From: Candidatus Amesbacteria bacterium
GTDB lineage: Bacteria > Patescibacteriota > Microgenomatia > CAZETR01 > Amesbacteraceae
Length of the DNA: 64,000 nucleotides
Assembly: GCA_963736875.1 (NCBI GenBank)
Contig: CAVTQH010000004.1
Coordinates: 88,050-152,049, forward strand
Direction: 5' to 3'
This document shows positions 9,342 through 58,275 of the stretch, one piece after another. The notes under the pieces were generated by a model that was not told the DNA's origin, did not search any database, and worked only from the letters and a program-made list of their open reading frames with translations. Both the position numbers and the translations under genes were made by a program. How positions within the stretch are numbered: the stretch's first letter is position 1; every line of letters starts with the position of its first letter.

Positions 9342-9938
9342 TTAGGGAGTCTGATTTCCGCTTACGGCAATTTCGTATATGCAATTCTGTTTCTGATTAT
9401 TTTTCTTGAAACCGGACTGGTAATTACTCCGTTTTTACCTGGAGACAGTTTGGTATTTGCCGCAGGTGCTTTTTCAGCCTTAGGTTCGCTTAATGTCTTT
9501 CTTGTATTTTTATTACTGTCTTTTTCCGCCATTTTGGGAGACACCGCAAATTACTGGATAGGTTATTTTTTCGGAAAAAAAATTCTCAGCCATCCCAAAT
9601 TACCTATCAATCAGGAACATATAGACAAAACCAATGCCTTCTTCAAAAAGCACGGAGGAAAAACCATTATTTTGGCCAGATTTATGCCTTTTATCAGAAC
9701 TTTTGCCCCTTTCGTAGCAGGTATAGGCAAAATGAACTATAAAAATTTTATCTTTTATAATTTTATCGGTGGTATTTTATGGGTAGGTATGTTCACATTT
9801 GTCGGATATTTTTTCGGCAATGTGCCTTTTGTAAAACACAATTTTTCCCTGGTTATAATCGCGATTATCCTTCTTTCAGTTTCTCCCGCTTTCTATGAAT
9901 TTATCAGACACAAAATTAAAAAAACCTCTAATTACTAA
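9291..9938 (+). CDS. dedA: DedA/SNARE-associated family membrane protein
   Basis: ETGLVITPFLPGDSLVFAAGA motif, multi-TM. Confidence 0.8.
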   Translation: MEIISYVVDFILHIDIHLGSLISAYGNFVYAILFLIIFLETGLVITPFLPGDSLVFAAGAFSALGSLNVFLVFLLLSFSAILGDTANYWIGYFFGKKILSHPKLPINQEHIDKTNAFFKKHGGKTIILARFMPFIRTFAPFVAGIGKMNYKNFIFYNFIGGILWVGMFTFVGYFFGNVPFVKHNFSLVIIAIILLSVSPAFYEFIRHKIKKTSNY

Positions 9939-10569
9939 TACCGTACTTCCGGATTACTCCTACAACTTTTCCCTGAATTCTAACCTTGTCTCCGGCCACA
10001 AAAATCGGTGACATTGTAGAATTTGCAGGTTCCAGCCGTACCCTTGTAGCTTCTTTAAAAAATCTTTTCAGTGTAGCAAAGCCGTTGTCGAGTAACGCCA
10101 CTACCACTTCACCGTTACTGGCGGTTTCCGTTTGTTCGATCACCACATAATCTTTATCAAATATTCCTGCTTCGATCATCGAATCACCTTTTACCTGAAG
10201 AACGAAACAACGTTTCTTGGGATTTACCATACTCGGAGGGACGCTGAATATGGAGTTCGGGTCGGTATAAGGTTCAATTGGTGATCCTGCGGCAATAAAA
10301 CCAAGAACCGGTAATTCTATAGCCGCTTCACTGGAAGTTCTTTCCGCGGCATTTTTGTCCAGTATTTCCAGACCTCTGACAGAACCCTCGTATTTCTTAA
10401 TAACTCCTTTTTTAACCATTGCCTGTAAATGTTCATGTACGGTAGCCAGTGAACTTACTCCCAAAGCCTTGGCAATCTCCTGTAAAGTAGGGGAATACCC
10501 ATTTGCCTGAATATACTGTGCCACAAAATCCAGAATTTGCCTTTGCCTGTTGTATAAAGTTACCGGCAT
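9928..10569 (-). CDS. lexA: LexA repressor (S24 peptidase)
   Basis: N-terminal wHTH (QRQILDFV...LQEIAKALG), and the C-terminal GDSM...K catalytic Ser/Lys dyad. Confidence 0.9.
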   Translation of the reverse strand: MPVTLYNRQRQILDFVAQYIQANGYSPTLQEIAKALGVSSLATVHEHLQAMVKKGVIKKYEGSVRGLEILDKNAAERTSSEAAIELPVLGFIAAGSPIEPYTDPNSIFSVPPSMVNPKKRCFVLQVKGDSMIEAGIFDKDYVVIEQTETASNGEVVVALLDNGFATLKRFFKEATRVRLEPANSTMSPIFVAGDKVRIQGKVVGVIRKYGISN

Positions 10570-27309: not shown

Positions 27310-27896
27310 TTTTTCCTCTCTTTTGTTTTTTCTCTTTTTCTTTTTTAAACAATTCTCTTACCACATGATTAATACAATGTTGTTTATTTTTTTTACACAT
27401 GGGTAGACTCCTTAAAAAAATGGATTCAATTGCTACATCTCTCCTGGAGAACACAAATGGATAAATTCACAAATGAAAAAGTTCATGAGAGATCAGATTG
27501 GAAACAACATATCCGATTCCATATCCGGCCAAAAATACAAAAACTGTATTCGCTTATCCCTCAACCAAAATTCCCTTGATTGTTGCGAACTGGGTTAACT
27601 TTAAAACTCTCCTGCGTTTATAAGACGCGCAGAAGGCCCGGCACACCAACCCTAGCACAAGATGGTGATAATAAACCCGGACCCTCGACGCGTCTCACAA
27701 CCCACAAGAAAGATTATTATTCAAACTCTCTTACTCTCTGTTTTTAATGTGCTAGAAAACAAAAAGACTTCGGCCAGACAATTGTCTTGCGTTATAAGAC
27801 TATGGCTAGCCAGTCTCGTGAGCAATAATATCGTATTACAGGCCTCCTGTCAACCAGTCTCTGGTACCCGGTGCTTATTGCCTATATAATGAATTT

Positions 27897-37549: not shown

Positions 37550-40500
37550 ATTGCCTCCGGCTGTTCTGGGTATTTCAAATTACGCCCCTACCGTCTATAT
37601 CAGTAATACTTCCGACGGTTACAATGCGGGGGGTGTTTTAAGTCAATCCAGCCTTGATGAACCTGCCATAAATCTCTCCACATACAATTCCACCGGTCCG
37701 GCTTCGCTTGATATTTATCAGGCTTCAATAAATGATGTTTTATCTTTTTTAACCTACGATTCCGAAAGCAAACAAAAACTTATGTTTGATTCTTCTCAAC
37801 TTTCCAAAGTTACTACTTTAACCACCAATATTTCTTCCTCCGGAGACAACCGCCTGCTTTTACCGATACAGGGAGAGGGTATTTGGTTTCTGAAAGATTA
37901 AATTCGGCCAAAACGAAAATTCCGCTTTTTTAATCCGTTCGGAAATCGAAGCCGTTGTAAAAGAAGGCGACAACAAGCTTCTTTTCTGGGTTCAAAATCT
38001 GACTACAAAAAAAACTGTTACCTCCGGTGTCTTAGAATTATTCAACCTTCTTGATTCTCCCCGGTCCCTGATCAAATCCGGTCTGGACGGTAAAGGTGTA
38101 ACAAGCATTTCTTACTCTCCTCAAACTTACGATGTCGCAATACTAACTTCCGATAATCACACCACCCTTATACCCATAAATATGCGTTATTTAAATTTCG
38201 GAGACCGTTACAATCAGTTTCTTCCCAGAAGCCGCATGTCACGGTATTTTATTTTTACCGACCGTCCGCTATATAAACCCGGTGATACGGTATATTACAA
38301 AGCCGTCATCCGGGATGATAACGACGTCCGATATTCCATACCAAAAGGCTTGGCTACAGTCCGGGCTTTTAAAGACTGGAATGTTCAAAGCGCATTTTTT
38401 TCCCAGACTCTCCCCGTCTCCGATAAAGGCACCATTACCGGACAATTCACTCTTCCGGTCGCCCAGGGAACGGGACACTTCCAAATCTCAATCCAAACCC
38501 AAAACCCCGGTGTCACATCCGGTGATTGGGAATATGAATCTTTCGGACAGGACAGTATCGGTTTTCAGGTCGAATATTTCCGAAAACCGGAGTACACCCT
38601 TGACGTCTCAACCCCCTATACTGAATATCGTCGCCGGTGATCAAATCGAGTTTACGGTCTCGGGTGCTTATTTTTCCGGTGCCCCGCTTAACCAGCAAAA
38701 CGTAAAATATTCACTTTACTCATCAAATTATTACGAATATGAATACCTTTTCAATAACCAAAATCTGCCGTCCGGCAGCAAATATTACGGCTACTGGAAC
38801 GGAAATAAAATCCAGGATGGTGAACTGACTTTAAACGGTACGGGACAGGCCAGCTTTTTAGTTCCTTCTTCCGACGGCAGATATAAATCCTCACGTTCAC
38901 AAATATTTTCCTTTGAAGTCCAATTTACTGACGAATCCGGAAATCCCGTACTGGCCAGAAAAAATATTCTGGTCTATCCCGCAGAGTTTAATATTTACCG
39001 CCGGAGTGGCTTTTATACCGGTCAAACAAACCGGCCGTTTGTCCTTCCGATAATTGTAAAAAGTATTCGCGGCAGTCGGATCAACGATCTCCGACTGACC
39101 GCCGGCATTCTCCGTGAAAGCTGGATTGCTCTTCCTTTGACACCAGGTCAAAAATATCCCACTTATGTAAAAGAAACCGAAAATCTTTCCTCATCTGTCC
39201 GCCATCACCAACTCCCTTGGTGAAGCCCAGTTTTCTTTTACTCCGGTAAAGACCGGTTCTTATACCTTTACCATCAGCGGTACTGATCAGAAAGGAAATG
39301 TTGTATCCAAAAACATGTACATTTGGATATCCGATACTACCCGCCCCACCCCAACCGGTCAGTATTATGAGGAGTTAAAGATAGAAACCGATTATCCCTC
39401 CTATCAGCCTGCGGATAAAGTAAATTTAAAAATTTGGTCTGATATCCCGGACCGGGATTTCCTGCTCACCTGGGAACGCGGCCGTGTCAATCGCTGGCAG
39501 ATCGTTAAGCTTTCAGGGCAATCCTCAAGCTTTACGCTGCCTCTGGAATATACCGATATTCCCAATATCTATATCACTGTCTCCGGTTTTTCTGAAAGTT
39601 CTTTCCTTTCGGATACCGTTAATGTAGATGTTTCTCCGGAAAGCCAGCGCTTAAATATCAGTCTTTCTCCCAACCTGAGCAGATACGGCCCCGGTCAGTC
39701 GGTAGTCCTTGACGTTAAGACCACTAATCAGCTTGGCAAACCTGTATCCGCTGACCTTGCCGTTTGGGCTGTTGATAAAGCCATATTCGAGCTTTCTGAC
39801 TCAAACGTCAGCGATATTTTTAATCGTTTTTGGTCAACCAGGGGCAATCAGACCAGCACCGGCCATTCACTTGAAAATATTTTGGTAAACACAGCTGAGG
39901 GAGGCGGCTGTTTTACAGCTGATACTAAAGTTTTAATGTCCGGTGGTTTTACCAGATCCATTGAAGACGTCAAACCTGGTGATACCATCCTGACCCGGGT
40001 ATCGGCAAACGATTCCCGCCTGACAAAAGCCAGGGTTCTGTCCACCCATTCTGCTACCGTTGACGGAATAATTATTTTAAATTCCCGTCTGAAAGTTACC
40101 CCCAATCATCTGCTTTGGGTAAATAATTCCTGGAAGACAGCGTCTCAAATCAAAAAGGGAGATATTCTTTCCAACTTTTCGGGCTCGTCAAACATTGTTA
40201 CTTCCGTTGAATGGCAAGCCGGTAAAATCCCCGTCTACAACTTAAAAATTGCAGATTTCCATACATATTTTGCCGAAGGAATCTGGGTCCACAATGACAA
40301 GGGAGAAGGAAGCGCCCGCTCGATATTTAAAGACACGGCATACTGGAATCCCACAGTTACCACCGACAGACTGGGTCAGGCCCAGGTAGTATTTACTCTT
40401 CCGGACAATCTCACTACCTGGACAATTGCTGCAGTCGGATCCACTGCAGACACCCAGGTGGGTCAGACTACGACGGAAATTATCTCATCAAAGGAAGTCA

Positions 40501-42539
40501 TTGTCAGACCGGTTCTTCCCAACCTGATTCGTATAGGAGACAAACTTCGGATTTCGGCTCTGGTGCACAATTTTACTGATGTTACTCAGGATTTTACCGT
40601 CGGCCTCAATTTTGACTCCGGCCAGATTACTCCTCCAGCCACTCATCAGCCAGTATCCATCTTACCCAATAATTTCCGCAGTTTTAGCTGGATTATTTCA
40701 CCGGATTCCGTAAATCCCGTCCGCCAAACTTACATTTTCGGCCCAAACCGCATCCGGTAAATCCGATTCTGTGCAGTCTGTTCTTGCCGGTCATCCCCTT
40801 CGGTTTTATGGAAACCAGTGCCCGGATCGGAAACGGAAATCAATCATATTCCGTCGAATTTCCCCCTGACGCGGATTTATCCCAATCTTCAATTACTCTT
40901 TCACTTGGCTTCAAACATTTTGGGAACCTTGCCTGCGGCTATGAAATACCTCATCGGTTATCCCTATGGATGTATCGAACAAACCACCAGCCGTCTGGTC
41001 CCGGCCATAATTACCAAAGCCAACCTGGATATTTTTTATGACGCTCTTGATCAGAAAGATATTACAAAAATTATTTCTGCCGGTCTTAACCGGTTATCCG
41101 CATTAAAATCCGTTGACGGCGGTTGGGGTTGGTGGCACTCTGTTCAAAATTCTGATCCTTTTATTACTTCGTATGTTCTGGAATATTTGTTCCTGGCCAA
41201 ATCTTCCGGCATCGAAATACCCGATGAACTTATAAAACCGGCTGTAAATTTTCTCAAGTCTTACAATCCCAAGGACGAAAATTCCCGTGTTTACAAGATT
41301 TACGGACTTAAATATTGCGGGTGAATCGGAAGGAAAAGAAAAATTAACAAATTTCGATGCTTATTCACCGGTATCTTTGGCATATGCCGTTATAAGCAAT
41401 GCCAAAAACGGAGACCAGAATCCCGATACCAACGGTTTAAAAAATCTTTTGTCCCGCTATAAAACCAGCGGGGACAATATTTATTGGGAAGCCGATTCTC
41501 AAAGTACTTTTCCTTCTTTGGAAGCCTCTACCGCCGTTTCGATCCGGGCAATTATCCAAGGAGGAGGGAACAGGGAACTGGCAGTCAAAGCCGCCCGTTA
41601 TCTGTCTGGGCAACCGCAAAAATAATTATTGGGCTAACACCTTCGCCACTGCTCAGATTATCAGAAGTATTACTGATCTTCACCGCACCGGTGGTGAAGC
41701 TGATCCCAATTTTTCTTATACGTTTAAATTTAACGACAGTTTGATAACCTCTGCCCAGATCACTTCCTCTGTCCAGCTTATTAAAGATATCGTTATTCCC
41801 GCCGCTTCAATAAAAATCGGATCAAATAAGTTCGATCTGTCATTCACCGGTACGGGACAAATATACAGTACGTTACTCCAAAATATCTGGCGTACTGATA
41901 AGAATGCCTCTCCCCAATCACATACAATTTCTTTATCCCGAAAATATGTAAACGACAAAGGAGAAGACTACACACTGGGAGTCGGTGACAGTGTTTCGGT
42001 TATTCTGACCGTTATCGGGTTTACCTCCTGATGCCCGTTATTTGGTCATCGAGGACTATCTTCCGTCCGGTTTGATACCTGTAAACACCAATCTCTTAAA
42101 CGAAAAGGCTGATAATGATTATTCCGTTTCCAAAGAGTATACGGCAAACGGTGCAATCATGTTTTCCCCGGTAATCGGTAACACGACATCATATTCATAC
42201 AAAGCCCGGGTAATTTCCCAGGGAGAATCAGTAGCCCCTCCCGCTATGGCGCAATTGATGTATCAGCCTGAAGTAAATGCCCTTAGCGAAACCAGTACTC
42301 TGATTACGGAGGAATTCAGCCGTTCTACCAAAACCCCGGTTGAAAATATCACCCGGTCAATTAAAAAATTCAGCCTTATCATTACCCCAAATTATTATTC
42401 TGGGATTATTAATTATCATTCCCCCTCCCTTCATCTTTTTAGACGATCAGAATCATCAAAAATCGTCACCCACCCCATCCTATTGAGTAAATTGAAAGCT
42501 GTCCAGTATTTTCCCAAAAGGCACCAACTCTTCATCTGA
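37550..42539 (+). CDS. Alpha-2-macroglobulin family thioester-containing protein (~1650 aa) with a Hint/intein-like insertion; reading frame changes ~9 times in this assembly
   Basis: MG-domain motif FIFTDRPLYKPGDTVYYKAV. Post-bait motif FKDTAYWNPTV...LPDNLTTWTI (equivalent to FPETWIW...PDTITEW). Thioester motif YPYGCIEQTTSRLVP. The ORF pieces 37551-37901, 37894-38640, 38282-39223, 39171-40760, 40818-41324, 41287-41625, 41741-42031 and 42042-42539 are collinear with A2M. Confidence 0.7.
39909..40295 (+). other. Hint (intein / bacterial intein-like) domain, 129 aa, inserted in the A2M bait region
   Basis: N-terminal CFTADTKVLM (block A), VTPNHLLWV (block B, TxxH), C-terminal VYNLKIADFHTYFAEGIWVHN (blocks F/G ending HN). 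The +1 residue is Asp, not Cys/Ser/Thr. Confidence 0.7.
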
Positions 42540-44114: not shown

Positions 44115-44825
44115 TTAAAGAAGAATAAAACTCATCAGGCTGGCGTCCAACTGCCCTTGATATTTTTCCCAGGCTGAATTCAAGGCCGTGGCGGTAATTA
44201 CATAAGCCTTACCCTTATCAATAAGTATCAGCTGCAGATTATGTAACGGATATACCCCCATGTCATACCTTGCCTCCAATATGACTCCGTCTTTTCCCCC
44301 GATTGTTTTTCTTTGTTCATTTATCAACTGATAGTTTGAAAATGACTTTGTCAAAACTTCTTTGCTGGCTGCAAGATAATCATCCAAAGTTACATCGACA
44401 GCCGCTTCGGATACGACATTGATATTTACGGAAAATTTATTTCCCGAGTCATCGTCGCTGACTGTATTAGCCACACTCACCAATGTTCCGAAGGACCCGC
44501 TTTCATCAACCCTCCAATCTTTAGGATGAGATATCTTAAATCCTCCCTTGCTGCTGGTAAATTGTTTTAACTCAACATCTCCGGTTACCGTCAAACCGCT
44601 GTCCGTAGCTTCACTAACCGGCGATAACAGTTGATTCTCTCCGGAAGGAAGGGGGGTTTCAACTTTCGATTTCTTAATATTACCCGCGATTAACTTGCTG
44701 ATCATCCATATCCCTGCTATTACGCCGGCCAATCCTACAATCCCCAGAATTATCCAGATTATCATTGCTGATTTTTCTTTGACTTCAGACTTATCGGTTT
44801 TCAAATCATAAGCATTCTTTATCAA
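44115..44825 (-). CDS. Membrane-anchored PsbP/DUF1795-like protein
   Basis: N-terminal TM after a short cytoplasmic tail. The C-terminal domain pattern (F.I.HP.DW...GS) is PsbP-like. Starts with TTG. Confidence 0.35.
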   Translation of the reverse strand: MIKNAYDLKTDKSEVKEKSAMIIWIILGIVGLAGVIAGIWMISKLIAGNIKKSKVETPLPSGENQLLSPVSEATDSGLTVTGDVELKQFTSSKGGFKISHPKDWRVDESGSFGTLVSVANTVSDDDSGNKFSVNINVVSEAAVDVTLDDYLAASKEVLTKSFSNYQLINEQRKTIGGKDGVILEARYDMGVYPLHNLQLILIDKGKAYVITATALNSAWEKYQGQLDASLMSFILL

Positions 44826-45119
44826 AATCCGATTTTGTTTCTGTAATCTCGGCTTTATCGGCTATCCCCAAGTCAAATTTGCTGGTTCCGCTGGCATCAC
44901 CGGTTGTCACAGCGACCGAACCGTCAGATTCCAAACCCGGTACTTTCAGCGCCTGGAATGCCTTTTCAATATCTTCATCTGCCCAACCGCTTTCAGCCAA
45001 TATTTTCCTAATTTCCGGATCAGTTATTCCGGCTTTAAGTTGCTCCCTGATATAGTCTACTAACTCCTGGTTCACTTCCTCAAGTTTATCATGAAAACTT
45101 TCCCAATTCCCGTATTTTG
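44806..45119 (-). CDS. Hypothetical small acidic protein
   Basis: The ORF-table ORF 44806..45222 runs into tRNA-Pro, so the real start must be downstream of 45120 (non-ATG start likely). Confidence 0.25.
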
Positions 45120-45191
45120 TCGGAGACGAGGGAATTGAACCCTCTACCTCTCGGTCCCAAACCGAGCGTTCTACCGATGAACTAGTCTCCG
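45120..45191 (-). tRNA. tRNA-Pro (anticodon TGG)
   Basis: Hand fold: acceptor CGGAGAC/GTCTCCG, anticodon stem CTCGG/CCGAG with loop TTTGGGA, T-loop TTCAATT. Confidence 0.85.
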
Positions 45192-45195
45192 TATG

Positions 45196-45280
45196 TGCCG
45201 AAGGCGGGACTCGAACCCGCATGAAGTGTTATCTTCGGGGGCTCTTAAGGCCCCTGCGTCTACCATTTCGCCACCTCGGC
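45196..45280 (-). tRNA. tRNA-Leu (anticodon TAA), type II
   Basis: Hand fold: acceptor GCCGAGG/CTTCGGC, anticodon stem GGGGC/GCCCC with loop CTTAAGA, long variable arm, T-loop TTCGAGT. Confidence 0.8.
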
Positions 45281-45303
45281 ATATACAAATTATATTATAA
45301 TTA

Positions 45304-45389
45304 TGTCGGTAATGGGCGAGTGCTGAAATTGGTATACAGGCATGCTTGAGGAGCATGTGGCCTTAATCGGCCGTGCAGGTTCAAGTCCT
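45304..45389 (+). tRNA. tRNA-Leu (anticodon GAG), type II
   Basis: Hand fold: acceptor GGGCGAG/CTCGCCC, anticodon stem CATGC/GCATG with loop TTGAGGA, long variable arm. Confidence 0.8.
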
Positions 45390-45391
45390 GT

Positions 45392-45409
45392 CTCGCCCAC
45401 CGCCTGCCG
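45392..45409. repeat. GC-rich hairpin element GCCTGCC-GGCG-GGCAGGC; its exact reverse complement recurs at 63168..63185
   Basis: 18-nt near-palindrome between tRNA-Leu(GAG) and tRNA-Leu(CAG). The inverse-orientation copy lies after rplT. Confidence 0.5.
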
Positions 45410-45425
45410 GCGGGCAGGCCCATCC

Positions 45426-45511
45426 GGGCGGATGGCGGAACGGTAGACGCGCTAGCTTCAGGAGCTAGTGACCTTAAAACGGTCGTGGAGGTTCAAATCC
45501 TCTTCCGCCCA
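45426..45511 (+). tRNA. tRNA-Leu (anticodon CAG), type II
   Basis: Hand fold: acceptor GGGCGGA/TCCGCCC, anticodon stem CTAGC/GCTAG with loop TTCAGGA, long variable arm. Confidence 0.8.
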
Positions 45512-45531
45512 CAGTACAATTGCTATAATAT

Positions 45532-45605
45532 GGACGATTAGCTCAGCTGGTTAGAGCGCCTCTCTTACACAGAGGAGGTCGGGGGTTCGAGCCCCTCATC
45601 GTCCA
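45532..45605 (+). tRNA. tRNA-Val (anticodon TAC)
   Basis: Hand fold: acceptor GGACGAT/ATCGTCC, anticodon loop CTTACAC, T-loop TTCGAGC. Confidence 0.85.
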
Positions 45606-45629
45606 CAAATAAAAAGCAAACAATCTCAA

Positions 45630-45702
45630 GCCGAGATAGCCAAGGTGGTCACGGCGGGCGCCTGAAGAGCGTCAGATTGAGGTTCGACTCCTCATCTCGG
45701 CA
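45630..45702 (+). tRNA. tRNA-Phe (anticodon GAA)
   Basis: Hand fold: acceptor GCCGAGA/TCTCGGC, anticodon stem GGCGC/GCGTC with loop CTGAAGA, T-loop TTCGACT. The D-arm is atypical (3-bp stem, 11-nt loop). Confidence 0.75.
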
Positions 45703-45737
45703 CACCCTAATTTAGCTTTGTTTATGTGTTATATTAG

Positions 45738-46454
45738 ATGTATATGGAAGAGAATACTTCCAGCGGTAGAGAATCTCCAGAAAAGATCAAGAATGATGGT
45801 TGGTTAACATATGTCAAATTAATTTTTCTCATAGCTTTATTCCTAACGATAGGAGGACTAGGAGGCTTCTCATTAGGATTCACTAGCACTAAGAAGTTAA
45901 CAGCTAGTAACCCTGCTATTTCACCCACCCCTGCTCCTTGTCCTTATGTAAGTCATATTAAGAATAATGGGTATTTGATAACAGAAAAAGAAGTTGAGGG
46001 GGGACGAATTGCTGCGTATCGCCTTGGTGATAACTTTTCAGATGATCCAGGTGTGTTCGCAATTATGTTAGATGCCGGCTCATTGCATAAACCCGTTATA
46101 TTTTCCGTCTCAAGTCCAGATTTCTCACAAGATAATTTATTTCAAATAATCGGCAAGGAATTGTGGGTGGTTAACGGCCAAACAAATAATATTGACGTTT
46201 ATTCCTATCAGGTTGAAAAGAGAAGTGGAAACTCCTTACAACTAAGTTCCTTAATCTATTTAAATTCAATAAATTTACCTAAATACAAAATTGGTGTTAT
46301 CTATTCGATATCTTGTGATGAAAAAATCTGTAACATCACTAGTGCTTTCCATCAAGAATCTGGGTGTAGGATGAACTTAAATATAAACACCAGGCAATTC
46401 TCAAATATAAATTGTGGAGGTTTAGGCGGAGACTTTAATCCAGAACCGCTCTGA
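45738..46454 (+). CDS. Hypothetical secreted/membrane-anchored protein
   Basis: 238 aa with an N-terminal TM/signal. It is the only ORF between tRNA-Phe and the duplicated tRNA-Phe 3' fragment. Confidence 0.35.
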   Translation: MYMEENTSSGRESPEKIKNDGWLTYVKLIFLIALFLTIGGLGGFSLGFTSTKKLTASNPAISPTPAPCPYVSHIKNNGYLITEKEVEGGRIAAYRLGDNFSDDPGVFAIMLDAGSLHKPVIFSVSSPDFSQDNLFQIIGKELWVVNGQTNNIDVYSYQVEKRSGNSLQLSSLIYLNSINLPKYKIGVIYSISCDEKICNITSAFHQESGCRMNLNINTRQFSNINCGGLGGDFNPEPL

Positions 46455-46500
46455 TATTAAACTCTTATTTGAATTTCTTATTGTTTTAGCCTCAAAATAG

Positions 46501-46540
46501 GTTCGACCTTACTCCAATTCTCGGCACACCCTAAATTAGA
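46501..46540 (+). repeat. Degenerate direct repeat of the tRNA-Phe 3' end and trailer (att-like)
   Basis: GGTTCGACCTTACTCCAATTCTCGGCACACCCTAAATTAG compared with the tRNA-Phe 3' end GGTTCGACTCCTCATCTCGGCACACCCTAATTTAG. TCTCGGCACACCCTAA is identical over 16 nt. Confidence 0.5.
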
Positions 46541-46614
46541 TTCATTTAATGTAAAATTAACGGGGTATGAAGAAAGGATTGTTCTTCTTCTGCATATTGG
46601 GTATTTGTTTTTGA

Positions 46615-47404
46615 TTAAATTACTTCATTCATCATTCTCTTAGTTATTCTCTATTAAACTCAATTATTTTTCTGCTGGGAATTTGGCAACTTTTTAAGTC
46701 ATCAAATATTATTTATTTACTGGGATTGGCAATAATGCCGATTTTGACATGGTACAGCAGTTCGCTTATTCCCGGTTTGGGGGTTCTTGCTTTTGAAGTG
46801 ATTATGATATGGGGGTCAAAAAGTAAAGGCGTTATCCGGACAAGTCTTCTTACCTTCTCTGCCATGATATTTTTTATATCTATGTTGCTGACCAGCGGCA
46901 TCCTGCGCTATGAGGGTTCAAAATCCGGAACTGTTAACAGAGAACAATTGTTTTTTTATCAGACCGATTCGGTAACTGCGTTGGAAAAAACTACTGGTAC
47001 TTTTCAAACAGATTTATGGGGTAAAGGAATACCTTTTACCAGGTCTAAATACGTTCATAATATGCCTGTGAGTATTTTGAACCGGTTTTTCAGAAACCTG
47101 ACCGAATTTTTATATCTGCCGAATTTTTATCAGACAATATTACTGGCAAATCTTTATCTTATCTTACTGGGAATAATCCGGACAAATAGTATTCAGGCTA
47201 AAGACATAAAAATATTACTGTATGCAGTTTTCGTCCATATTTTTAATCGTCGTGGGAGCATCATTGCACATAGGGAAAAATGCAGCGATTTACCCGCTGA
47301 TTCCCGTACTAATATTTCTTGCAGGACAGGGGAGTGCTAAAAGCAAACTGCCGGTTTATATGGGACTCTTAATATTTCAGTTACTGTTTTTGGGATGGGG
47401 ATAG
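46615..47404 (+). CDS. Polytopic membrane protein, Wzy/O-antigen-ligase-like; interrupted by an in-frame TGA upstream and a frameshift near 47230
   Basis: Hydrophobic ORFs 46615..47340 and 47222..47404. A short MKKGLFFFCILGICF peptide lies upstream in the same frame and ends at TGA 46612..46614. Confidence 0.3.
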
Positions 47405-47407
47405 TTT

Positions 47408-49015
47408 ATGAAATCTAAATTCGTTACTTTGACTTTCATTATATTTATCGTGGCATTATTTATTCGAATTGTCGGAATGGGCAAAGTACCTCCCCACTTA
47501 TCTAATGATGAGATTTCCATTGCTTACGATGCTTACTCCCTGCTTCATACCGGCCGTGACGAACATAACCACTTATTTCCGTTGTCATTTCAGTCACACA
47601 ATACATATAAAGCGCCTCTCACGGCTTATCTGCTGATTCCAACCACGGCTATTTGGGGACCTTCGGAATTGGCATCTAAATTACCTTCAGCAACACTGGG
47701 GTCGTTAACCGTTTTGATGCTGATAATCATGACATGGCAAATATTTCGTTTAAAATCTTTGGCATTATTTTCAGGAACCGTTTTAGCCATAACACCATGG
47801 CATATTTACACTTCACATATGATTTTAGAATCAAATATTGCCTTATTCTTCGTAATCACCGGAATATCATTATTTTTTAAATATCAGGAAAACCGGAAAT
47901 TGAATGTTTTAATATTTTCCATGATTTTCTTTTCTCTTTCGGTTTACAGCTATCATACGGAGTGGCTTTTTACCCCGTTGTTACTGGCGGGGATGGGATT
48001 AATATTCCGGATTAACTTAAAGTTAAAAGATATTATTACGGGAGGTTTGGTTTTCGGAATTTGCATTTTACCTCTGGTAATTGATACATACCGGCAAATC
48101 GGACAGAGCACCCGGGGTAATACCGAAGCCATCATTTACGAACCTACCCTGCAGGAGACACTGAATAATCCGCGACTTTCGCTTACATCAAAAACCCGTA
48201 CTTTGGTAAATGCCGTTATCAGCAATTATGCAAATTATTTTAATTTTGGATATCTGTTTTCGTATGGATTGGATATTCCGCCAAAACCGTTAACCACACA
48301 GTCGGGTCTATTTTTAGGCATTTTTTTACCGTATTTTTGATTGGTTTATATTCTCTATCCAGAATATCCGGGAAAAGAAAAATACTTTTTAATATTATTT
48401 CTTTTACTCGCACCGGTGATACCAGCAATGACTAAGGGCGGATCTAACTTCGTCCGGGCATTGGTGATGGTGTTACCGCTTTCCATGGTTATCGGCTCTG
48501 GGATTAATTATGTCTGGAAAAAAACAAATGATATAAAATTCAAAATCTGTCTGATAGTTCTGCCTATTGCCATCACTTTCGGATATTTCAGCCTGCTATA
48601 TTATTTTCACTATCCAATACATGCCGGTGAGAATTTTGCATATGGTTACAAACAGATAGCTGATTACATTAATTCTCATCCCGGCCAATACCAAAAAATT
48701 GTGGTTGATCCGAAATTCGGTACAAATTACGAATTTGTAGGCGTACCTCACTTATATCTCGCATATTTTACCCATTATGATCCGGAAAGATTTCTCCTTG
48801 AAAGAAAAGATTTACCTACCGGACTTTACTTTTCACCTTTCGAGATCAGGGAAATCAATTGGGGAGCAGAGAAACCCACCGTTAAAGCTTTATACATTTC
48901 TCCAACAGCAAACTTACCTGCAAATAATCGCGGGGATTTATTATCAGTCAAAACAATTTATTACCCCGATGGCCATGCGGCGTTTGAAATATTTGAAGGA
49001 ATTGCGAAGCCGTAA
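47408..49015 (+). CDS. GT39/GT83-family (PMT/ArnT-like) membrane glycosyltransferase; two collinear ORFs in the same frame separated by an in-frame TGA at 48338..48340
   Basis: N-terminal DE..Y motif (SNDEISIAYDAYSLLHTGRDE) and a multi-TM core. 47408..48340 and 48341..49015 are in the same frame (both positions are 2 mod 3), and the combined 534 aa matches the family size. Confidence 0.6.
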
Positions 49016-49020
49016 TTGAA

Positions 49021-50340
49021 TTACTTTGTCAAAATTTCTATCCAGGGTGACCAAACGGAGAGGGCATAGGTAACCGGAGTAGTCAATAAAAACCCTAGTA
49101 CTATCAATGCCATATATCCCTGTCTTACCCATTTACCCCATTTATGCATACCGAATTCGATTACTATCGGAACTAATAAATACCCGCACAATAATGCGGA
49201 AAAATAATGATACATAAAAACAACTCTGCCCACGAATAAAAATGGAACAAAAAATAATATAAATCCCAATATTGCCACTGACAGATGCTCTTTACTAATA
49301 CTCAGCCATTTTTCCCGTCGTGTACCGGACAAGATCACCCACCCGAACAACAATGCCCCCGGAACAGTTAACCATCCGATTTGATTTCCCGACAGTACAA
49401 TCACTGCATTTTTTGCCGAGTTAATAAATATCGGAATTTTTCCCAGACCCAATAACCATTCCCAGGGATGACTTGCTGATTCATGCTGCTGGTAAACTGT
49501 ATTTGCAGCAAACATGTGTACGAAGTGAGCGGGTAAATATTTAATTACATCAAATTTATTATTCATAGCCGGATACTCTATCTGAACGTAAAGTTTTTCA
49601 TAGATCGAAAACGGAATATTTTGCCTGACAGGTAACCTTCCGAAAAATATCATCCAGATTCCTAAATGAACTACCGTAATTACTGCCAGCATGACCAAAG
49701 CCTGTCTGAATTTTTTTTTATTCCCCAGTACTGCCAATGCCATGACCACAAATCCTAAGGCTATCCACTTAACGGAAATCGCAATTCCCAAAAATATTCC
49801 CGCTCCGAACAAAATCCAATTCCTGCGCCGGAATGTTTTTTTTAAAATATACAATAAAACCAGCATAACTCCTGTCATCCCGGTAAATAGCATCAGATTC
49901 TCGGGTAATATTAACCTTGAATATAAGACAAACGCATTATCCCAAGTAATCAACCAGGCTGGTATTAAAGCTAAATAGGTATTTTTATACAGTAATTTTG
50001 CCAGAATAAAAACAACTGCCGGAATCAGACAACCGATCAGTGCATTGACAATTCTCAGCGGTATATACGGAAAGTCACCGAAAATTTCATCACGGTTGAT
50101 TATTTTATTCTGATATGAAGGTGTATTACCGATACCTGCTACGGTAGAAAAAAACATTTGCGCAAAGGGGGGATGAACATCAAAATAGGGTCTTTTATAA
50201 AGATATTCAAGTATAAATGTGACACTCGCTCTCTCGTCAAAAATTATTGAATTCGGGTAATCAATTCTCGGAAATCTCAGACATCCTGCCAAAATCACAA
50301 TTATCAAAATTACTGCATAATCAATTCTTGACCACCCCAT
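49021..50340 (-). CDS. GT39-family dolichyl-phosphate-mannose-protein mannosyltransferase-like glycosyltransferase
   Basis: FDERASV...FDVHPPFAQ (the DVHPP hallmark of PMT/GT39), ~11 TM helices, 439 aa. Confidence 0.7.
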   Translation of the reverse strand: MGWSRIDYAVILIIVILAGCLRFPRIDYPNSIIFDERASVTFILEYLYKRPYFDVHPPFAQMFFSTVAGIGNTPSYQNKIINRDEIFGDFPYIPLRIVNALIGCLIPAVVFILAKLLYKNTYLALIPAWLITWDNAFVLYSRLILPENLMLFTGMTGVMLVLLYILKKTFRRRNWILFGAGIFLGIAISVKWIALGFVVMALAVLGNKKKFRQALVMLAVITVVHLGIWMIFFGRLPVRQNIPFSIYEKLYVQIEYPAMNNKFDVIKYLPAHFVHMFAANTVYQQHESASHPWEWLLGLGKIPIFINSAKNAVIVLSGNQIGWLTVPGALLFGWVILSGTRREKWLSISKEHLSVAILGFILFFVPFLFVGRVVFMYHYFSALLCGYLLVPIVIEFGMHKWGKWVRQGYMALIVLGFLLTTPVTYALSVWSPWIEILTK

Positions 50341-50376
50341 GACTTTTATTATAAATCTGTTCTGTTAAAATATTTC

Positions 50377-50429
50377 TACTGCGGGAGTAGGGGAGATGCT
50401 TCGCATCTTAACTACTCCTCCGGTAAACT
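50377..50429 (+). repeat. Duplicated 5' fragment of tRNA-Gly (CTGCGGGAGTAG) embedded in a nested hairpin upstream of the intact tRNA
   Basis: CTGCGGGAGTAG occurs at ~50379 and again at the tRNA 5' end (~50428). The intervening sequence folds as GGAGTAG...CTACTCC with an inner GATGC-TTC-GCATC hairpin. Confidence 0.45.
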
Positions 50430-50501
50430 GCGGGAGTAGTTCAGCAGTAGAATGTCTCCTTGCCAAGGAGAAGGTCGCGGGTGCGAATCCCGTCTCCCGC
50501 T
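50430..50501 (+). tRNA. tRNA-Gly (anticodon GCC)
   Basis: Hand fold: acceptor GCGGGAG/CTCCCGC, anticodon stem TCTCC/GGAGA with loop TTGCCAA, T-loop TGCGAAT. Confidence 0.85.
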
Positions 50502-50504
50502 CTT

Positions 50505-51087
50505 ATGAAATCGCTTTTACCGGTTTTAGTATTTTTTGCAGTCACGCCTGTTATTATTTTTCTTTCCGCTTCGCTTCTCCTTTCTTACTCTCAATCCGGC
50601 AATTATCCGGTATCACCTTCACCCAATAATGTATTTTCTGCCGTGGACGAAAAACCCTTTCCTGCCACCAATATTTTAGGTTACTTTTCAACGAGTGATG
50701 CCAGAGTATATATAGTAAAAAACTATCTTAAGAAATATTCATCTCCGTTAGAACCATACTCTCAAAACTTAATAAATATTTCTGATAAATATTCACTCGA
50801 TTATCGACTGCTGGTAGCCATTGCCCAACAGGAGTCCAATCTATGTAAAAAAATCCCGGAGTTATCCCATAACTGCTGGGGATATGGTATTTACGGTGAT
50901 AAAATCACCCGCTTTGACAACTATCCGCAGGCAATGGATATTGTCGCAGGTACTCTTAAGTCACAAATATATAGATATTGGGCTGGATACACCGGAAAAG
51001 ATAATGGCTAAATATACCCCGCCGTCTCTCGAAAAGGGCGGGCCATGGGCCAAAGGTGTAAACCAATTTATGAGCGATCTGGAATAA
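50505..51087 (+). CDS. Secreted peptidoglycan-hydrolase-like protein (glucosaminidase/transglycosylase-like AIAQQESN...NCWGYGIYG block); apparent frameshift near 51000
   Basis: Signal peptide MKSLLPVLVFFAV. The ORF-table ORF 50460..51011 starts inside the tRNA. The C-terminal continuation is in the +1 frame (50821..51087). Confidence 0.4.
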
Positions 51088-51839: not shown

Positions 51840-52775
51840 CTAAACTGAGAATATTTGACTTTTTGGAAGACCCATAGTAATATACGACCAGGTTTCGTAG
51901 CTTAGCTTAACCGCTTTGCTGTGAGATTTTAAAAGCCTCGGCACTGGGCAGGAGCCGGGGCTTTTTTTGTGCCTAAATTTCATACTATAATCAAACTGTG
52001 CGCCTCGTGGTGAAATGGTATACACGCAGGCTTTAGGAGCCTGTCCCAGCGATGGTGGTAGGAGGTTCGAGTCCTCTCGAGGGCACATTACAAACTTACT
52101 TTCCTGGCTTCTTTCCATTACTCTGAAATTATTATTCCCTGGATTATTTACCAAATCAGCCACCCGGTAAGCTTCCATTTTATCCGTTTCATTAGGTTCC
52201 ATTATTTTCTTGAGTCTTTCGATATCAAAAAATTTATTATTCAGCCAATCCTCTTCATCTTCTGTATTTAGTATTACCGGCATCCGGTCGTGAATTTCCA
52301 TCATTGTCTTATTTGCCTTTGTAGTCACAATTGAGAATGTCTTAATCTCAAACCCCTGGGCATCTTTCCAGATATCAAAAATTCCGGCAAAACCGAATAT
52401 TCTTCTTTCAACAAGCCTGATCCAATATGGAATTTTAAGTACTTTTCCCCGATCGGAAACTTTTCTCCACTCAAAAAATCCGCTGGCCGGTACCAGACAT
52501 CGCTGCTGTCTGAAAGCTTTTCTGAAAGCCGGTTTAACTTCTATCTCCTCGCTTCTGGCATTAATTGTGCTGTAGCTGATACGCGGATCCCTGGCCCAGA
52601 ACGGAATCAAACCCCATTTCATTTTTTCCACCTTTTTGGGGCTTTTCATGGTTACCACCGGCATTATCATTCCCGGTGCCACGTTATATTCCGGTGACAT
52701 TTCCACCTCGCGGTTTTCAATTTCAAACCGGTCATAAAAATCTTTTTCCGGTATAAATCCGTATCTTCCGCACAT
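51840..52775 (-). CDS. yedK: SOS-response-associated peptidase (SRAP/YedK/HMCES family) abasic-site processing protein
   Basis: N-terminal MCGRYG (Cys2 nucleophile) and SGFFEWR motifs. The family length (~230 aa) implies an end near ~52100, but the ORF stays open to 51840 and reads antisense through tRNA-Leu(TAG). Confidence 0.75.
   Translation of the reverse strand: MCGRYGFIPEKDFYDRFEIENREVEMSPEYNVAPGMIMPVVTMKSPKKVEKMKWGLIPFWARDPRISYSTINARSEEIEVKPAFRKAFRQQRCLVPASGFFEWRKVSDRGKVLKIPYWIRLVERRIFGFAGIFDIWKDAQGFEIKTFSIVTTKANKTMMEIHDRMPVILNTEDEEDWLNNKFFDIERLKKIMEPNETDKMEAYRVADLVNNPGNNNFRVMERSQESKFVMCPREDSNLLPPSLGQAPKACVYTISPRGAQFDYSMKFRHKKSPGSCPVPRLLKSHSKAVKLSYETWSYITMGLPKSQIFSV
51935..51968 (+). 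terminator. Rho-independent terminator (9-bp GC stem + T7), A-tract on the other side
   Basis: AAAAGCCTCGGC-ACTGGGCAGGA-GCCGGGGCTTTTTTT. Confidence 0.6.
52001..52085 (+). tRNA. tRNA-Leu (anticodon TAG), type II; the first two acceptor-stem pairs are mismatched
   Basis: Anticodon stem CAGGC/GCCTG with loop TTTAGGA, long variable arm, T-loop TTCGAGT. The 3' acceptor CGAGGGC faces 5' CGCCTCG (C1-C72 and G2-G71 unpaired). Confidence 0.6.
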
Positions 52776-52784
52776 ATTCCGATT

Positions 52785-54042
52785 TTAACTCATAACTATC
52801 TCCTCCAGCTCTTTTATCCCTCCGAACGCTATCCGGTCAGGTACCAGATCCGCCGCTCCCAACATCAGAGCCGGAGTCAGCACAAAATTTCCCCATCTTT
52901 CGTTTACCTTATCCACCGCCGCCACCAGACTTTCCTTTTTTGCTACCTCCTCCAAAAATGTTGTTTGCAAAACGCCTTGTTTTACTAAATCAAATCCTGA
53001 TACCGCCAGTGTATGCACGGGTTTCCGATACGGGGAAGAGACCATTATCCGCCTGGCTGCCTTATAAATATCCCTGCTGTCAAAGATCGGATCGGGCTGC
53101 ACCTGCCCATGATGCCACCAGGAAAAATCACGGTACAGCATCCCCACATGCACTCCCCGGGCCCGATACCCGGCCCGCCGCATTCTCATCCCCATCTTAA
53201 AAACCAGTTTGTGCAAAATCGGCGACAATTCTTCAGGGCAGGAAACCGGTTTGGGCAAAGCATAACTGTTCCCGTAGCTTCTCCGGGCAAACACCACATC
53301 GTCAACCTCAAACCCCCTCAGACGTAAATACCAATAGTATCCCAGTACCGAACCAAACGCAGCTTTCAGAACAGTTGCCCGCGCTGCCCAAAAATCAACC
53401 ACGGAAAATATTCCGAAATAATTCAGACGGGCTGCGTTATTACCCTTGATTCCGCACAAATCCGCCAGTTTCAAACCCATATAAATTGTCAGAAAATTAC
53501 CTTTGTCAATCACATCCAGCCCGTCCGGTTTGTGCAGAGAAGCTCCGGTTTTGGCCAGCCACCGGTTGGGAGCAATCCCCACCGACACCCGCAAAAAATC
53601 CCCCACTTCCTCTCTGACCCTTTTTTTAATCTCCGTCGCCACCTCCACCATCCCCCTGCGCCGACAGGGGGCTCCCTCCAAATCCATCACAAATTCATCT
53701 ATCGACTTGGGTGTCACTTTATCGGTATAAGTCCCCAACAAGCTGCTTCAGTTTAAGATGTACCGACCGGTATTTATTCGGATCCGGCGGTATCACTATC
53801 AGTTCGGGTACCAGCATTCTGCCGTCTTTCACCCGCATTCCCACCCGTACCCCCAGCTTCTTGGCTTCCACCGAAGGAGCAATAATGCATCCCCCGGGGG
53901 TCGTATATGCCGCCACCGCCACCGGTTTACCCCGGAGGAGGGGATTGGCCTGCTGTTCCACACTGGCAAAGCAGGAATTCAGGTCCAAATGGATAATCGT
54001 CGGCTCTTTTGAATTAAAAGACAAATCAGTCAGCTTCTCCAT
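52785..54042 (-). CDS. dinB: Y-family DNA polymerase (DinB/UmuC-like, Pol IV/V class); N-terminal 107-aa and C-terminal 318-aa ORFs split by an apparent frameshift
   Basis: N-terminal IIHLDLNSCFASVEQ motif (the conserved DxxxFFAxVE block). C-terminal VGIAPNRWLAKTGASLHKPDG and the little-finger region. Noticeably GC-richer (~57%) than its neighbours. Confidence 0.8.
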
Positions 54043-56883: not shown

Positions 56884-58275
56884 GATGAACCTCCCCTTAA
56901 ACGTTCTTACCGATTTTTTACGGATTCCTTCCGTTTCCACCCAGCCTGAACAGGCGGGTGAATGTCTTCGGGCTGCAAATTATATTTCAGATCATCTTTC
57001 TTCTCTTGGGTTTCTCTTCCCGGCTTCTTCCCGGTAAAGTCCATCCCTCAGTCTTTGCCCAACTAACATCCGCAGCGGAAGACATCCGACAGTCTTAATT
57101 TACGGCCACTACGATGTCCAGCCGGCAGGAGCTCCCAGCCAATGGACTACCCCTGCTTTTGAACCGGATATCAGAAAAGGACGTATTTATGCCCGGGGAG
57201 CCACCGATAACAAAGGTCAGCTGATGGTTCAGATTCATGCGGTCAGCCAACTTATTAATAAGTACGGTCAAAATAATTTACCTCTGAATATTAAATTTCT
57301 GATTGAAGGTGAAGAAGAAATCGGCAGCCCGAGCGTTATGGATCAACTGACCGCATATCCCGAACTGTTTCGATACCGACTATGTAATTATTTCAGACAC
57401 CGAAATGCTGGGAGCCAACCGGCCGACTCTTGACGTCTCGTTAAGAGGTGTTATGGACATAGAAATTTCTGTTCAGACCGGATCTCATGATATCCATTCC
57501 GGCCAATTCGGAGGTTTGGCACCAAATCCGGCTTTTATTATGTCTCACTTATTGTCGCTTCTGAAAAATGGCCGTGACCGGGTATTAATTTCGGAATTTT
57601 ATTCGGATATTATTCCACCTACACCCAAAGAACTCGACGATCTGCGCCGTCACGCTCCCGATGTCAAAGATGTTCTTAAAGAAGGTCATTTTTTCTATCT
57701 TGGAGGCGGAGAACCTCATTTACCCATCAATCGTCGCCGTTGGTATGAGCCGACTCTGGACATTACCGGTCTCGATTCCGGTTATACCGGACATGGTACC
57801 AAAACAATTATTCCCGGCCGGGCCGATGCCAAACTTTCAATCCGACTTGGTCCCGTACCAGAATCCGCAAAAAATCTACTCCAATTTGGTTAATTTCCTG
57901 CAAAAACACGTCTCCAAAAATGTTGTTTTATCAGTTTCCCGTTCGGAAATTGCCCTGCCGTACCGGGCTCCTATAGAACATCCGGTTTACCACTTGGCGG
58001 GTCAGTGTCTGGAAAGCATTTTCGGCCACCCGGCAGCCTTTGTCGGTCAGGGCGGATCCATAGGTTTCGTCCCGGTTTTGGCTAAATCTTTAAACGTTCC
58101 CTGTGTCCTGATTGGTTTTGGTTTACCCGATGAAAATCTTCATGCCCCCAATGAACACTTTTCATTGTTCAACTTTTCCAGGGGTATTGAAGCTATGACT
58201 TTGTTTTACTCCCGTCTCGCCGATTTAAAACCTGTAGCATTAAAAAATCAGGAGACTAACAACTCACCCGAATAA
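56884..58275 (+). CDS. M20-family metallopeptidase (ArgE/DapE/dipeptidase-like); fragmented into at least five frames in this assembly
   Basis: PTVLIYGHYDVQPAG...WTTPAF...GRIYARGATDNKGQ metal-binding block, plus later M20 dimerisation and C-terminal blocks spread over ORFs 57224..57433, 57405..57893 and 57661..58275. Confidence 0.65.

Follow-up and report, generated by a model that had tools for sequence, protein, structure and literature searches.

Integron cassettes are units of a single open reading frame (ORF) with a distal attC site, which are handled by IntI at attI, and clusters of attC sites without an integrase are known as CALINs. The IMEX elements found at dif and the pdif modules of Acinetobacter plasmids have no integrase of their own and depend on a recombinase supplied in trans, with XerC/D acting on dif-like 28-mers. 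The tRNA-linked repeats (TLRs) of Escherichia coli come in units, e.g., the 178-bp tyrT repeats, that are short, non-coding, and homologous to one another. [quoted passage not shown] The integrative elements recognized by Islander are defined by a tRNA gene accompanied by a displaced fragment of its 3' end, by the presence of an int gene, and by a size of 2-200 kb (PMC7192596). In this study, we analyzed a 64-kb stretch of DNA from a Candidatus Amesbacteria bacterium (contig CAVTQH010000004.1, positions 88,050 to 152,049; hereafter the window), in which the 3' end of a tRNA-Phe(GAA) gene is repeated 0.8 kb downstream with one ORF between the two copies. We see about an even chance that this 0.8-kb segment is an attachment (att)-type junction of a small, integrase-less, cassette-like insertion. 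A limited search of the literature found no description of tRNA-Phe-linked modules in bacteria of the candidate phyla radiation (CPR).

The tRNA-Phe(GAA) gene occupies positions 45630-45703 of the plus strand (ARAGORN; Rfam RF00005, 58.6 bits, with the 3' end placed at 45703 or 45702 by the two callers). It is functional, encodes no CCA, and closes a Leu(GAG)-Leu(CAG)-Val(TAC)-Phe(GAA) tRNA array at 45314-45703, one part of a complement of 15 tRNA genes called by ARAGORN in the window. The last 8 nt of the gene and the first 8 nt of its trailer form the 16-mer TCTCGGCACACCCTAA, which is present exactly at 45695-45710, where it spans the acceptor 3' strand, the discriminator, and 8 nt of trailer (copy 1, plus strand), and again at 46519-46534, at the right end of copy 2. 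The two sites are 824 bp apart from start to start, and no third site with up to three mismatches exists anywhere in the 64-kb window. The block in copy 1 is a candidate recombination core. Gapped local alignment of 45668-45736 with 46488-46559 shows that the similarity begins near tRNA position 38, shortly after the anticodon, and continues, with indels in the T-arm, through about 30 nt of trailer; the stretch GGTTCGAC...ATTAG lies at 46500-46539, offset by one base from the position given in the first-pass annotation of this DNA. The trailer following copy 2 (46535-46572, plus strand) is identical to that of copy 1 at 27/40 positions (p about 0.015 versus shuffles), which makes it a weak extension of the duplication.

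The first-pass annotation had proposed from the letters alone that the tRNA-Phe 3' end recurs 0.8 kb downstream, and the proposal is borne out. When a 40-mer made of the last 25 nt of tRNA-Phe and 15 nt of trailer was searched against 300 composition-preserving block shuffles, the longest exact match on the same strand was 9-14 nt, compared with the 16 nt observed only 0.8 kb downstream of the gene. For the other 14 tRNAs of the window, direct matches never exceed 12 nt. A repeat that arose by chance or as an artefact of assembly is therefore highly improbable and effectively refuted, even though 16 nt is short and the contig contains several apparent frameshifts and in-frame stops: the match exceeds the shuffle maximum of 14 nt, it is flanked by gapped similarity, and homologous elements are found at the same relative position in independent assemblies. 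A weaker third echo that had been suggested at 27639-27656 did not survive the same comparison, as its nine contiguous bases (CGGCACACC) fall within the 9-14 nt expected by chance and it gives no match to the profile described below.

Copy 2 (46484-46534, plus strand) proved to be a degenerate member of a tRNA-Phe-linked repeat family of about 57 nt, as judged by leave-one-out nhmmer, alignment, and a regular-expression scan. The family was discovered by examining about 190 tRNA-Phe loci, each for a further copy of the 3' end of its tRNA-Phe, and aligning the matches. These loci, which carry the labels Woesebacteria, Amesbacteria, Microgenomates, or Patescibacteria, were gathered by scanning public genomes and metagenomes with a 29-nt stretch (5' pattern) of this tRNA-Phe, which is an unusual one; a genome scan with the 24-nt tRNA-Phe 3' end gave no match. 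The conserved element, AAAGTACCTTTTGAAGCTnnAAATAGGTTCGACCCCAGACCTATTCTCGGCAC, corresponds to tRNA-Phe positions ~38-76, from the anticodon loop to the 3' end, with a T-loop segment that is 5 nt longer in all element copies. Relatives of copy 2 were found downstream of tRNA-Phe in three other Microgenomates lineages: at +783 in locus L184, at +629 and +1615 in L089, which carries tandem modules, and at +788 in L011, L187, and L190 (Amesbacteria). The element always follows tRNA-Phe, or the preceding element, at a distance of 0.6-1.0 kb, with one ORF in between. No further members were found in the window, about 200 loci, and viral contigs, so that the sequence is confined to tRNA-Phe loci rather than being the widespread intergenic motif, unrelated to the tRNA, that the first-pass annotation had considered as an alternative.

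The assignment of copy 2 to this family does not depend on its own sequence having entered the model. A profile built from only the two L089 copies, L184, and L011, with the window copy omitted, found 46484-46528 as its sole match in the window (28.5 bits, E 7.4e-8), and the alignment crosses the 5-nt T-loop expansion without a gap. With the family profile, no genuine tRNA-Phe 3' half scores above 21.5 bits, and the window's own tRNA-Phe is not reported at all. After its longer T-loop-like segment, copy 2 continues with the acceptor 3' strand TCTCGGCAC. It is, however, the most degenerate member of the family. Its profile alignment begins at model position 16, and the upstream AAAGTACC box of the family has been lost, with TTATTGTTTT standing in place of AAAGTACC(Y)TTT. 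Its left arm matches family elements at 25-27/36 positions versus 23/35 for its own tRNA-Phe, whereas the left arms of the two L089 elements agree with one another at 33/36 positions and with that of L184 at 30/36. On these alignments, copy 2 is a family member and not a private decay product of the resident tRNA. ARAGORN does not call it a tRNA, and it has no Rfam match. The possibility that it represents the 3' exon of an intron-split tRNA or one half of a split tRNA was dropped, as the resident tRNA is complete and the T-arm of the copy cannot pair.

The right 16 nt of copy 2 (46519-46534) are identical to copy 1, and comparable matches between the core of the element and the resident tRNA end were found elsewhere in the family, extending over 17-18 nt in L089, 12 nt in L011, and 9 nt in L184. 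The loci agree over the roughly 45 nt that precede the shared core, whereas the right-hand sequences differ. This one-sided conservation combined with a host-matching core is the layout of a junction that results from a crossover in the acceptor strand and trailer. The tRNA-Phe sequence is identical in the window, L007, L166, and L184, and in L184 divergence from the window begins after ...TCTCGGCAC. An alignment of L184 with the window or with L007 is now restricted to the tRNA genes and does not include the spacers. Therefore, the 30/36 identity of the left arms of L089 and L184 points to constraint on the element or to its recent transfer. The left arm of copy 2 is best explained as part of a conserved repeat, derived from tRNA-Phe, that in Microgenomates moves along with single genes or captures them time and again.

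It is also conceivable that the tRNA-like segment functions as RNA and directs 3'-end processing or the termination of read-through from the tRNA operon. The stretch from tRNA-Phe to the ORF has no predicted terminator, and the repeated 3' end of an E. coli TLR has been suggested to be a recognition element for RNase E (PMC8144298). However, folding of the five element copies gave no shared structure and no consistent hairpin (z-scores of -1.6 to +1.2), the T-arm-like stem is broken in three of the five, and Rfam gave no match. Moreover, three of the five associated ORFs are antisense, so that the element cannot be their 3' end. We therefore regard a processing signal as very improbable.

The claim of the first-pass annotation that the repeats bracket a single ORF and no integrase also holds. 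The only sense ORF of at least 50 aa between the two copies lies at 45738-46454 on the plus strand and encodes 238 aa (the public call starts at 45744 and gives 236 aa). The protein has no Pfam or PHROG match and is therefore not an integrase. It has an N-terminal transmembrane helix, predicted at residues 21-41, followed by a beta-rich, cysteine-containing domain, and a membrane-anchored extracytoplasmic protein is a reasonable reading. The AlphaFold model (mean pLDDT 66) shows the same arrangement of an N-terminal helix and a beta-rich domain, and a Foldseek search of the PDB with this model returned only weak, partial similarity to beta-propellers (TM 0.3-0.4). Because these matches are weak and partial, no function was assigned. 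The GC content of the ORF is 0.365, versus 0.418 for the window. Eight homologues with 41-63% identity were found in non-syntenic contexts, and no tRNA or element is present near any of them; the gene and the site are thus no fixed pair. One of these homologues adjoins a BrnT/CopG toxin-antitoxin pair, and an IS200-type transposase is encoded on the same contig.

Five modules bounded by the element can be compared, and each of them contains exactly one ORF within 0.63-0.99 kb. The ORFs encode 238 aa in the window and 193 aa in L190, both in the sense orientation, and 211 aa in L184 and 137 aa and 228 aa in L089, all three antisense. They are mutually unrelated, and none of the five has a Pfam or PHROG match. 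Beyond the last element, the loci continue with different genes. Those of the window encode GT39-type glycosyltransferases, whereas L089 has a 580-aa membrane protein at this place, L184 a transglutaminase-like protein, and L190 proteins of the GATase and GNAT types. Because the contents of the units are unrelated, simple tandem duplication is ruled out, and new DNA must have been inserted between the copies of the site.

A more elaborate form of local duplication deserves consideration, in which the tRNA 3' half and its trailer were copied locally, through gene conversion or through illegitimate or unequal recombination, without any mobile element and the intervening gene came by homologous exchange anchored in the conserved tRNA genes. 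The E. coli TLRs, for which such an origin has been proposed, provide a precedent (PMC8144298), as they too are downstream sequences whose end repeats a tRNA 3' end (16 bp in the present case, made up of 8 nt of mature tRNA and 8 nt of trailer and located 0.8 kb downstream). In addition, the similarity in the window runs about 40 nt into the trailer, no recombinase was found, and short TLR-like duplications of tRNA-Phe, 18-20 nt long and extending from the T-loop to the 3' end, occur 30-100 nt downstream of the gene in L015, L041, and L072. However, local duplication predicts units that are homologous throughout, which is not what the modules show. In contrast to TLRs, they measure 0.6-1.0 kb and carry different ORFs, and their repeat begins at the anticodon loop and has an expanded T-loop. 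This explanation also leaves unaccounted for the recurrence of one derived 57-nt sequence in lineages in which the spacers between the tRNA genes can no longer be aligned with the window, as well as the two stacked modules of L089 with their different genes. We consider it unlikely, although not negligibly so. A separate arrangement was seen in L120 (4453-4536), where a tRNA-Phe 5' fragment of ~55 nt, reaching to the T-stem, precedes a complete tRNA-Phe; this may be either a tandem partial duplication or an assembly artefact.

The 0.8-kb module forms the tRNA-proximal edge of a 4.7-kb variable islet (45704-50429) between tRNA-Phe and tRNA-Gly(GCC) (50430-50502, plus strand), the conserved right-hand neighbor of tRNA-Phe in relatives. 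The GC content of the islet is 0.372, compared with 0.418 for the window. Besides the 238-aa ORF module and copy 2, the islet contains an ORF for a 204-aa membrane protein (46726-47340) and two GT39/PMT glycosyltransferase genes, one of the GT39 type at 47408-49015 and one of the PMT type at 49021-50340 on the minus strand. Distant relatives retain the order Leu-Leu-Val-Phe ... Gly(GCC) ... Leu(TAG) together with the gene that follows tRNA-Gly (50460-51011), and this gene is kept beside tRNA-Phe/Gly in dozens of loci. What varies is the gap. When the relatives were examined for an uninterrupted target of the kind used by TIGER, tRNA-Gly(GCC) was found to start no more than 100 nt from tRNA-Phe in 68 of 146 non-redundant related loci and to lie within 500 nt in 26 more, whereas 19 of the 146 carry inserts of 0.5-4.6 kb that represent more than 15 unrelated gene families, with gap contents unrelated between genomes. 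Therefore, the whole 4.7-kb gap of the window appears to be an insertion. The closest relative, L007 (L166 has the same sequence), is 89% identical in DNA over 44116-45713 and has no match to the window beyond. Its homology stops about 10 nt past tRNA-Phe and three bases past the 16-nt block, i.e., directly after the core. Closer relatives were sought by means of the flanking DcrB-like gene and the GT39 gene and are limited to L007, L166, and L214, which are short contigs, and L213, which extends in the wrong direction; the best GT39 homologue is 59% identical, and the best ones bear the names Shapirobacteria, Daviesbacteria, or Microgenomates. No relative was found that has the same 0.8-kb segment minus the repeat, an arrangement that would have made the segment ancestral. 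These comparisons, together with the integrase-bearing element of L085/L185 described below, demonstrate that the tRNA-Phe 3' end is a hotspot of insertion and recombination in this lineage.

Several smaller features of the islet were recorded. Right after copy 2, at 46567-46614, a GGGG-ATG start opens a 15-codon ORF (MKKGLFFFCILGICF*), which looks like the beginning of a signal peptide or transmembrane segment cut short and may be what is left of a gene that was displaced. The GT39 gene is split by a single in-frame TGA (48338-48340) into ORFs of 310 aa and 224 aa, whereas its homologues are continuous and about 530 aa long, and the split could reflect a pseudogene, a sequencing error, or read-through. 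At the distal end, the 13-mer ACTGCGGGAGTAG takes in the first 10 nt of tRNA-Gly(GCC) at 50427-50439 and is repeated 49 nt upstream, at 50378-50390. Between the two copies, in the divergent PMT/tRNA-Gly region, lies an imperfect hairpin, GGAGTAGgGGAGATGCttcGCATCTtaaCTACTCC, and the duplication may be a tRNA-linked repeat of the 5' end or a small inserted hairpin.

Given a tRNA gene with a displaced 3' fragment, which is the classic Islander signature (PMC7192596), the locus may alternatively descend from a tRNA-integrated island or prophage in which deletions left one cargo gene and the distal att site. Like the elements found by Islander and TIGER (PMC7192596), it has an intact tRNA gene at one end, a direct repeat of the 3' part of that gene at the other, and a target that behaves as a hotspot varying between relatives. 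It differs from them in having no integrase and a length of 0.8 kb (824 bp), which fails both the int and the 2-200 kb criteria, and in that its distal repeat is a conserved family element with derived features of its own. The tiny genomes of CPR bacteria are presumably prone to deletion, and an intact integrase element at tRNA-Phe, such as the first-pass annotation had suggested looking for in relatives, does exist in the clade. In L085/L185 (L085 1850-2931, L185 1-7480, oriented with tRNA-Phe on the plus strand), a 7.4-kb element encodes a tyrosine integrase, a 310-aa Phage_integrase protein (E 5e-19), and is flanked by a hybrid tRNA-Phe on one side and an intact tRNA-Phe on the other. The hybrid copy switches allele at the T-loop, so that its T-stem and acceptor 3' strands are those of another allele and the copy cannot fold, and the locus is a clean example of integration by T-loop crossover in Microgenomates.

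However, the L085/L185 junction is of a different kind from those of the modules, as it uses a T-loop crossover and has no 57-nt element. All five modules, in four lineages, consist of a single ORF and fall between 0.63 and 0.99 kb, and the same minimal decay in each is not to be expected. Furthermore, the distal sites share the derived 5-nt T-loop expansion and the AAAGTACC box across lineages, which host tRNA ends displaced independently would not do. A decayed island is accordingly an unlikely, if still respectable, account of the locus. Two proposals of the first-pass annotation have to be modified in this light. Its att-like signature of a tRNA-targeting element is upheld in so far as the repeat is tRNA-derived and the site is a hotspot, but copy 2 belongs to a family of about 57 nt and is not simply a displaced host end. 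Its suggestion of a decayed remnant or a very small cargo island is right about a single-gene module, but the module is probably not just the leftover of one decayed island and is only the proximal part of the 4.7-kb islet.

Searches for the machinery that might move the modules gave little. Window ORFs of at least 150 aa contain no integrase, resolvase, or transposase domain, and none of the five modules has an integrase pseudogene. A search of 1593 ORFs by regular expressions and phmmer returned the integrase of L085/L185 as the sole match. Scans of viral contigs with the 16-mer, with AAAGTACC...GGTWCGAC, and with the expanded T-loop pattern gave either chance matches in coding sequences or none, and hence no phage or plasmid attP was found in them.

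Our preferred reading, the cassette-like insertion, would require that a one-gene, integrase-less module was inserted at the tRNA-Phe 3' end by site-specific, att-type recombination, with copy 2 as the distal junction of the inserted module. The crossover would have taken place inside the core formed by the acceptor strand and trailer, leaving a family-type left arm (46484-46518) and a host-identical right part (46519-46534). Modules of this kind can stack in tandem, e.g., in L089, and lie on the tRNA-Phe side of a more extensive variable islet that keeps this gene apart from tRNA-Gly(GCC). That a site-specific recombinase made the junctions and that the modules move as cassettes is what we infer from this layout. 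The unrelated contents of the units, the one-sided conservation, and the likeness of the L089 and L184 elements speak for such recombination and against local duplication. Integrases are also known to target tRNA-Phe in the clade, as L085/L185 shows, and the short duplications of L015, L041, and L072 are in line with this. As the recombinase is encoded neither in the module nor in the 64-kb window, it would act in trans or has been lost. The window copy itself is most likely an inactive fossil, because the AAAGTACC box has been lost and the T-arm-like stem cannot form.

A number of observations weigh against such an insertion. The family is small, with representatives in four lineages among about 190 loci, and copy 2 is a poor representative of it, as it is without the AAAGTACC box and has a left arm that is barely nearer to the family (27/36) than to its own tRNA (23/35). 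The 27/40 identity of the trailers in the window would fit local duplication equally well. The orientation of the cargo is mixed, with two sense ORFs versus three antisense. No recombinase is present in the module, in window ORFs of at least 150 aa, or in the flanks of the L089 and L190 arrays, and no circular or excised form was seen. Among the relatives, there is no genome with a precise absence of the 0.8-kb module alone, and near tRNA-Gly there is no distal tRNA-Phe fragment that would close off the remainder of the islet.

By analogy, the locus would be most like an integrase-less cassette or module system with a site recognized in trans. As in IMEX and pdif modules, one or a few genes stand between short copies of a recombination site and no recombinase is carried along; in contrast to them, the 57-nt element has no similarity to dif. 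The resemblance to integron cassettes and CALINs lies in the single unrelated ORF of each unit, in the conserved site at the distal end only, in the tandem stacking from a fixed proximal site, and in a cargo that is mostly of unknown function. Unlike integron cassettes, however, the modules have cargo in mixed orientations and no attC-like hairpin shared by the five copies, the window encodes no IntI or other tyrosine recombinase, the site is derived from a tRNA, and a tRNA gene end takes the place of attI on the proximal side. A bolder possibility, which we hold to be rather doubtful, is that Microgenomates possess an integron-like platform for gene capture, with the tRNA-Phe 3' end as the fixed proximal site, single-gene cassettes, and a recombinase encoded elsewhere in the genome that inserts, stacks, and exchanges them. 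The distal site of ~57 nt may then be analogous to attC, and the window would contain one fossil cassette.

To judge from the labels of the tRNA-Phe loci and the names of the best GT39 homologues, the window is a chromosomal segment of a CPR bacterium of the Microgenomates, and it has housekeeping genes for enolase, PPDK, UvrABC, LexA (9928-10569), trigger factor, ThrRS, and IF3. A gene for an SOS-response-associated peptidase (SRAP) adjoins that of a Y-family polymerase (IMS) at 51840-53741 on the minus strand, and the SRAP/IMS pairing near the tRNA array is also found in L008, L089, and L190. Within the array, the palindromic, GC-rich trailer of tRNA-Leu(GAG), CCGCCTGCCGGCGGGCA (45402-45418), has a 17-nt inverted match near position 814, and the two may share a hairpin or terminator-like motif. 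Several genes appear to be broken. The DcrB/PsbP-like gene (44115-45222, minus strand) encodes 236 aa, compared with 319 aa in homologues with 91% identity (P0010 and P0140), and its missing N-terminus lies in another frame (ORF 44806-45222) that reaches tRNA-Pro, so that a frameshift is apparent. An alpha-2-macroglobulin-like gene (38182-42539) appears broken into at least five ORFs with MG2, A2M_BRD/A2M, TED, and MG10 domains, and the piece at 39315-40760 includes an intein-like Hint/PT-HINT domain. A gene for an M20 peptidase (57405-58275) is split by an apparent frameshift into two overlapping ORFs with M20_dimer and Peptidase_M20 domains, respectively. The repeated occurrence of apparent frameshifts suggests many pseudogenes or indel errors in the assembly.

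The genomes of CPR bacteria (Patescibacteria) are tiny, and little is understood of the ways in which accessory genes reach them. The gap after tRNA-Phe appears to be a recurrent and defined point of entry, through which more than 15 unrelated gene families have been received across relatives, and a conserved tRNA-derived site sets off single genes of unknown function there. If copy 2 were only the fossil of an ordinary island integration, it would still be a fragment of a tRNA gene that annotation pipelines should not call a tRNA (compare PMC9897764). It is the family and the hotspot that carry the interest of the locus, the window copy itself being probably an inactive fossil, and the 57-nt profile offers a searchable handle on captured genes, and on the recombinase responsible for them, in uncultured bacteria.

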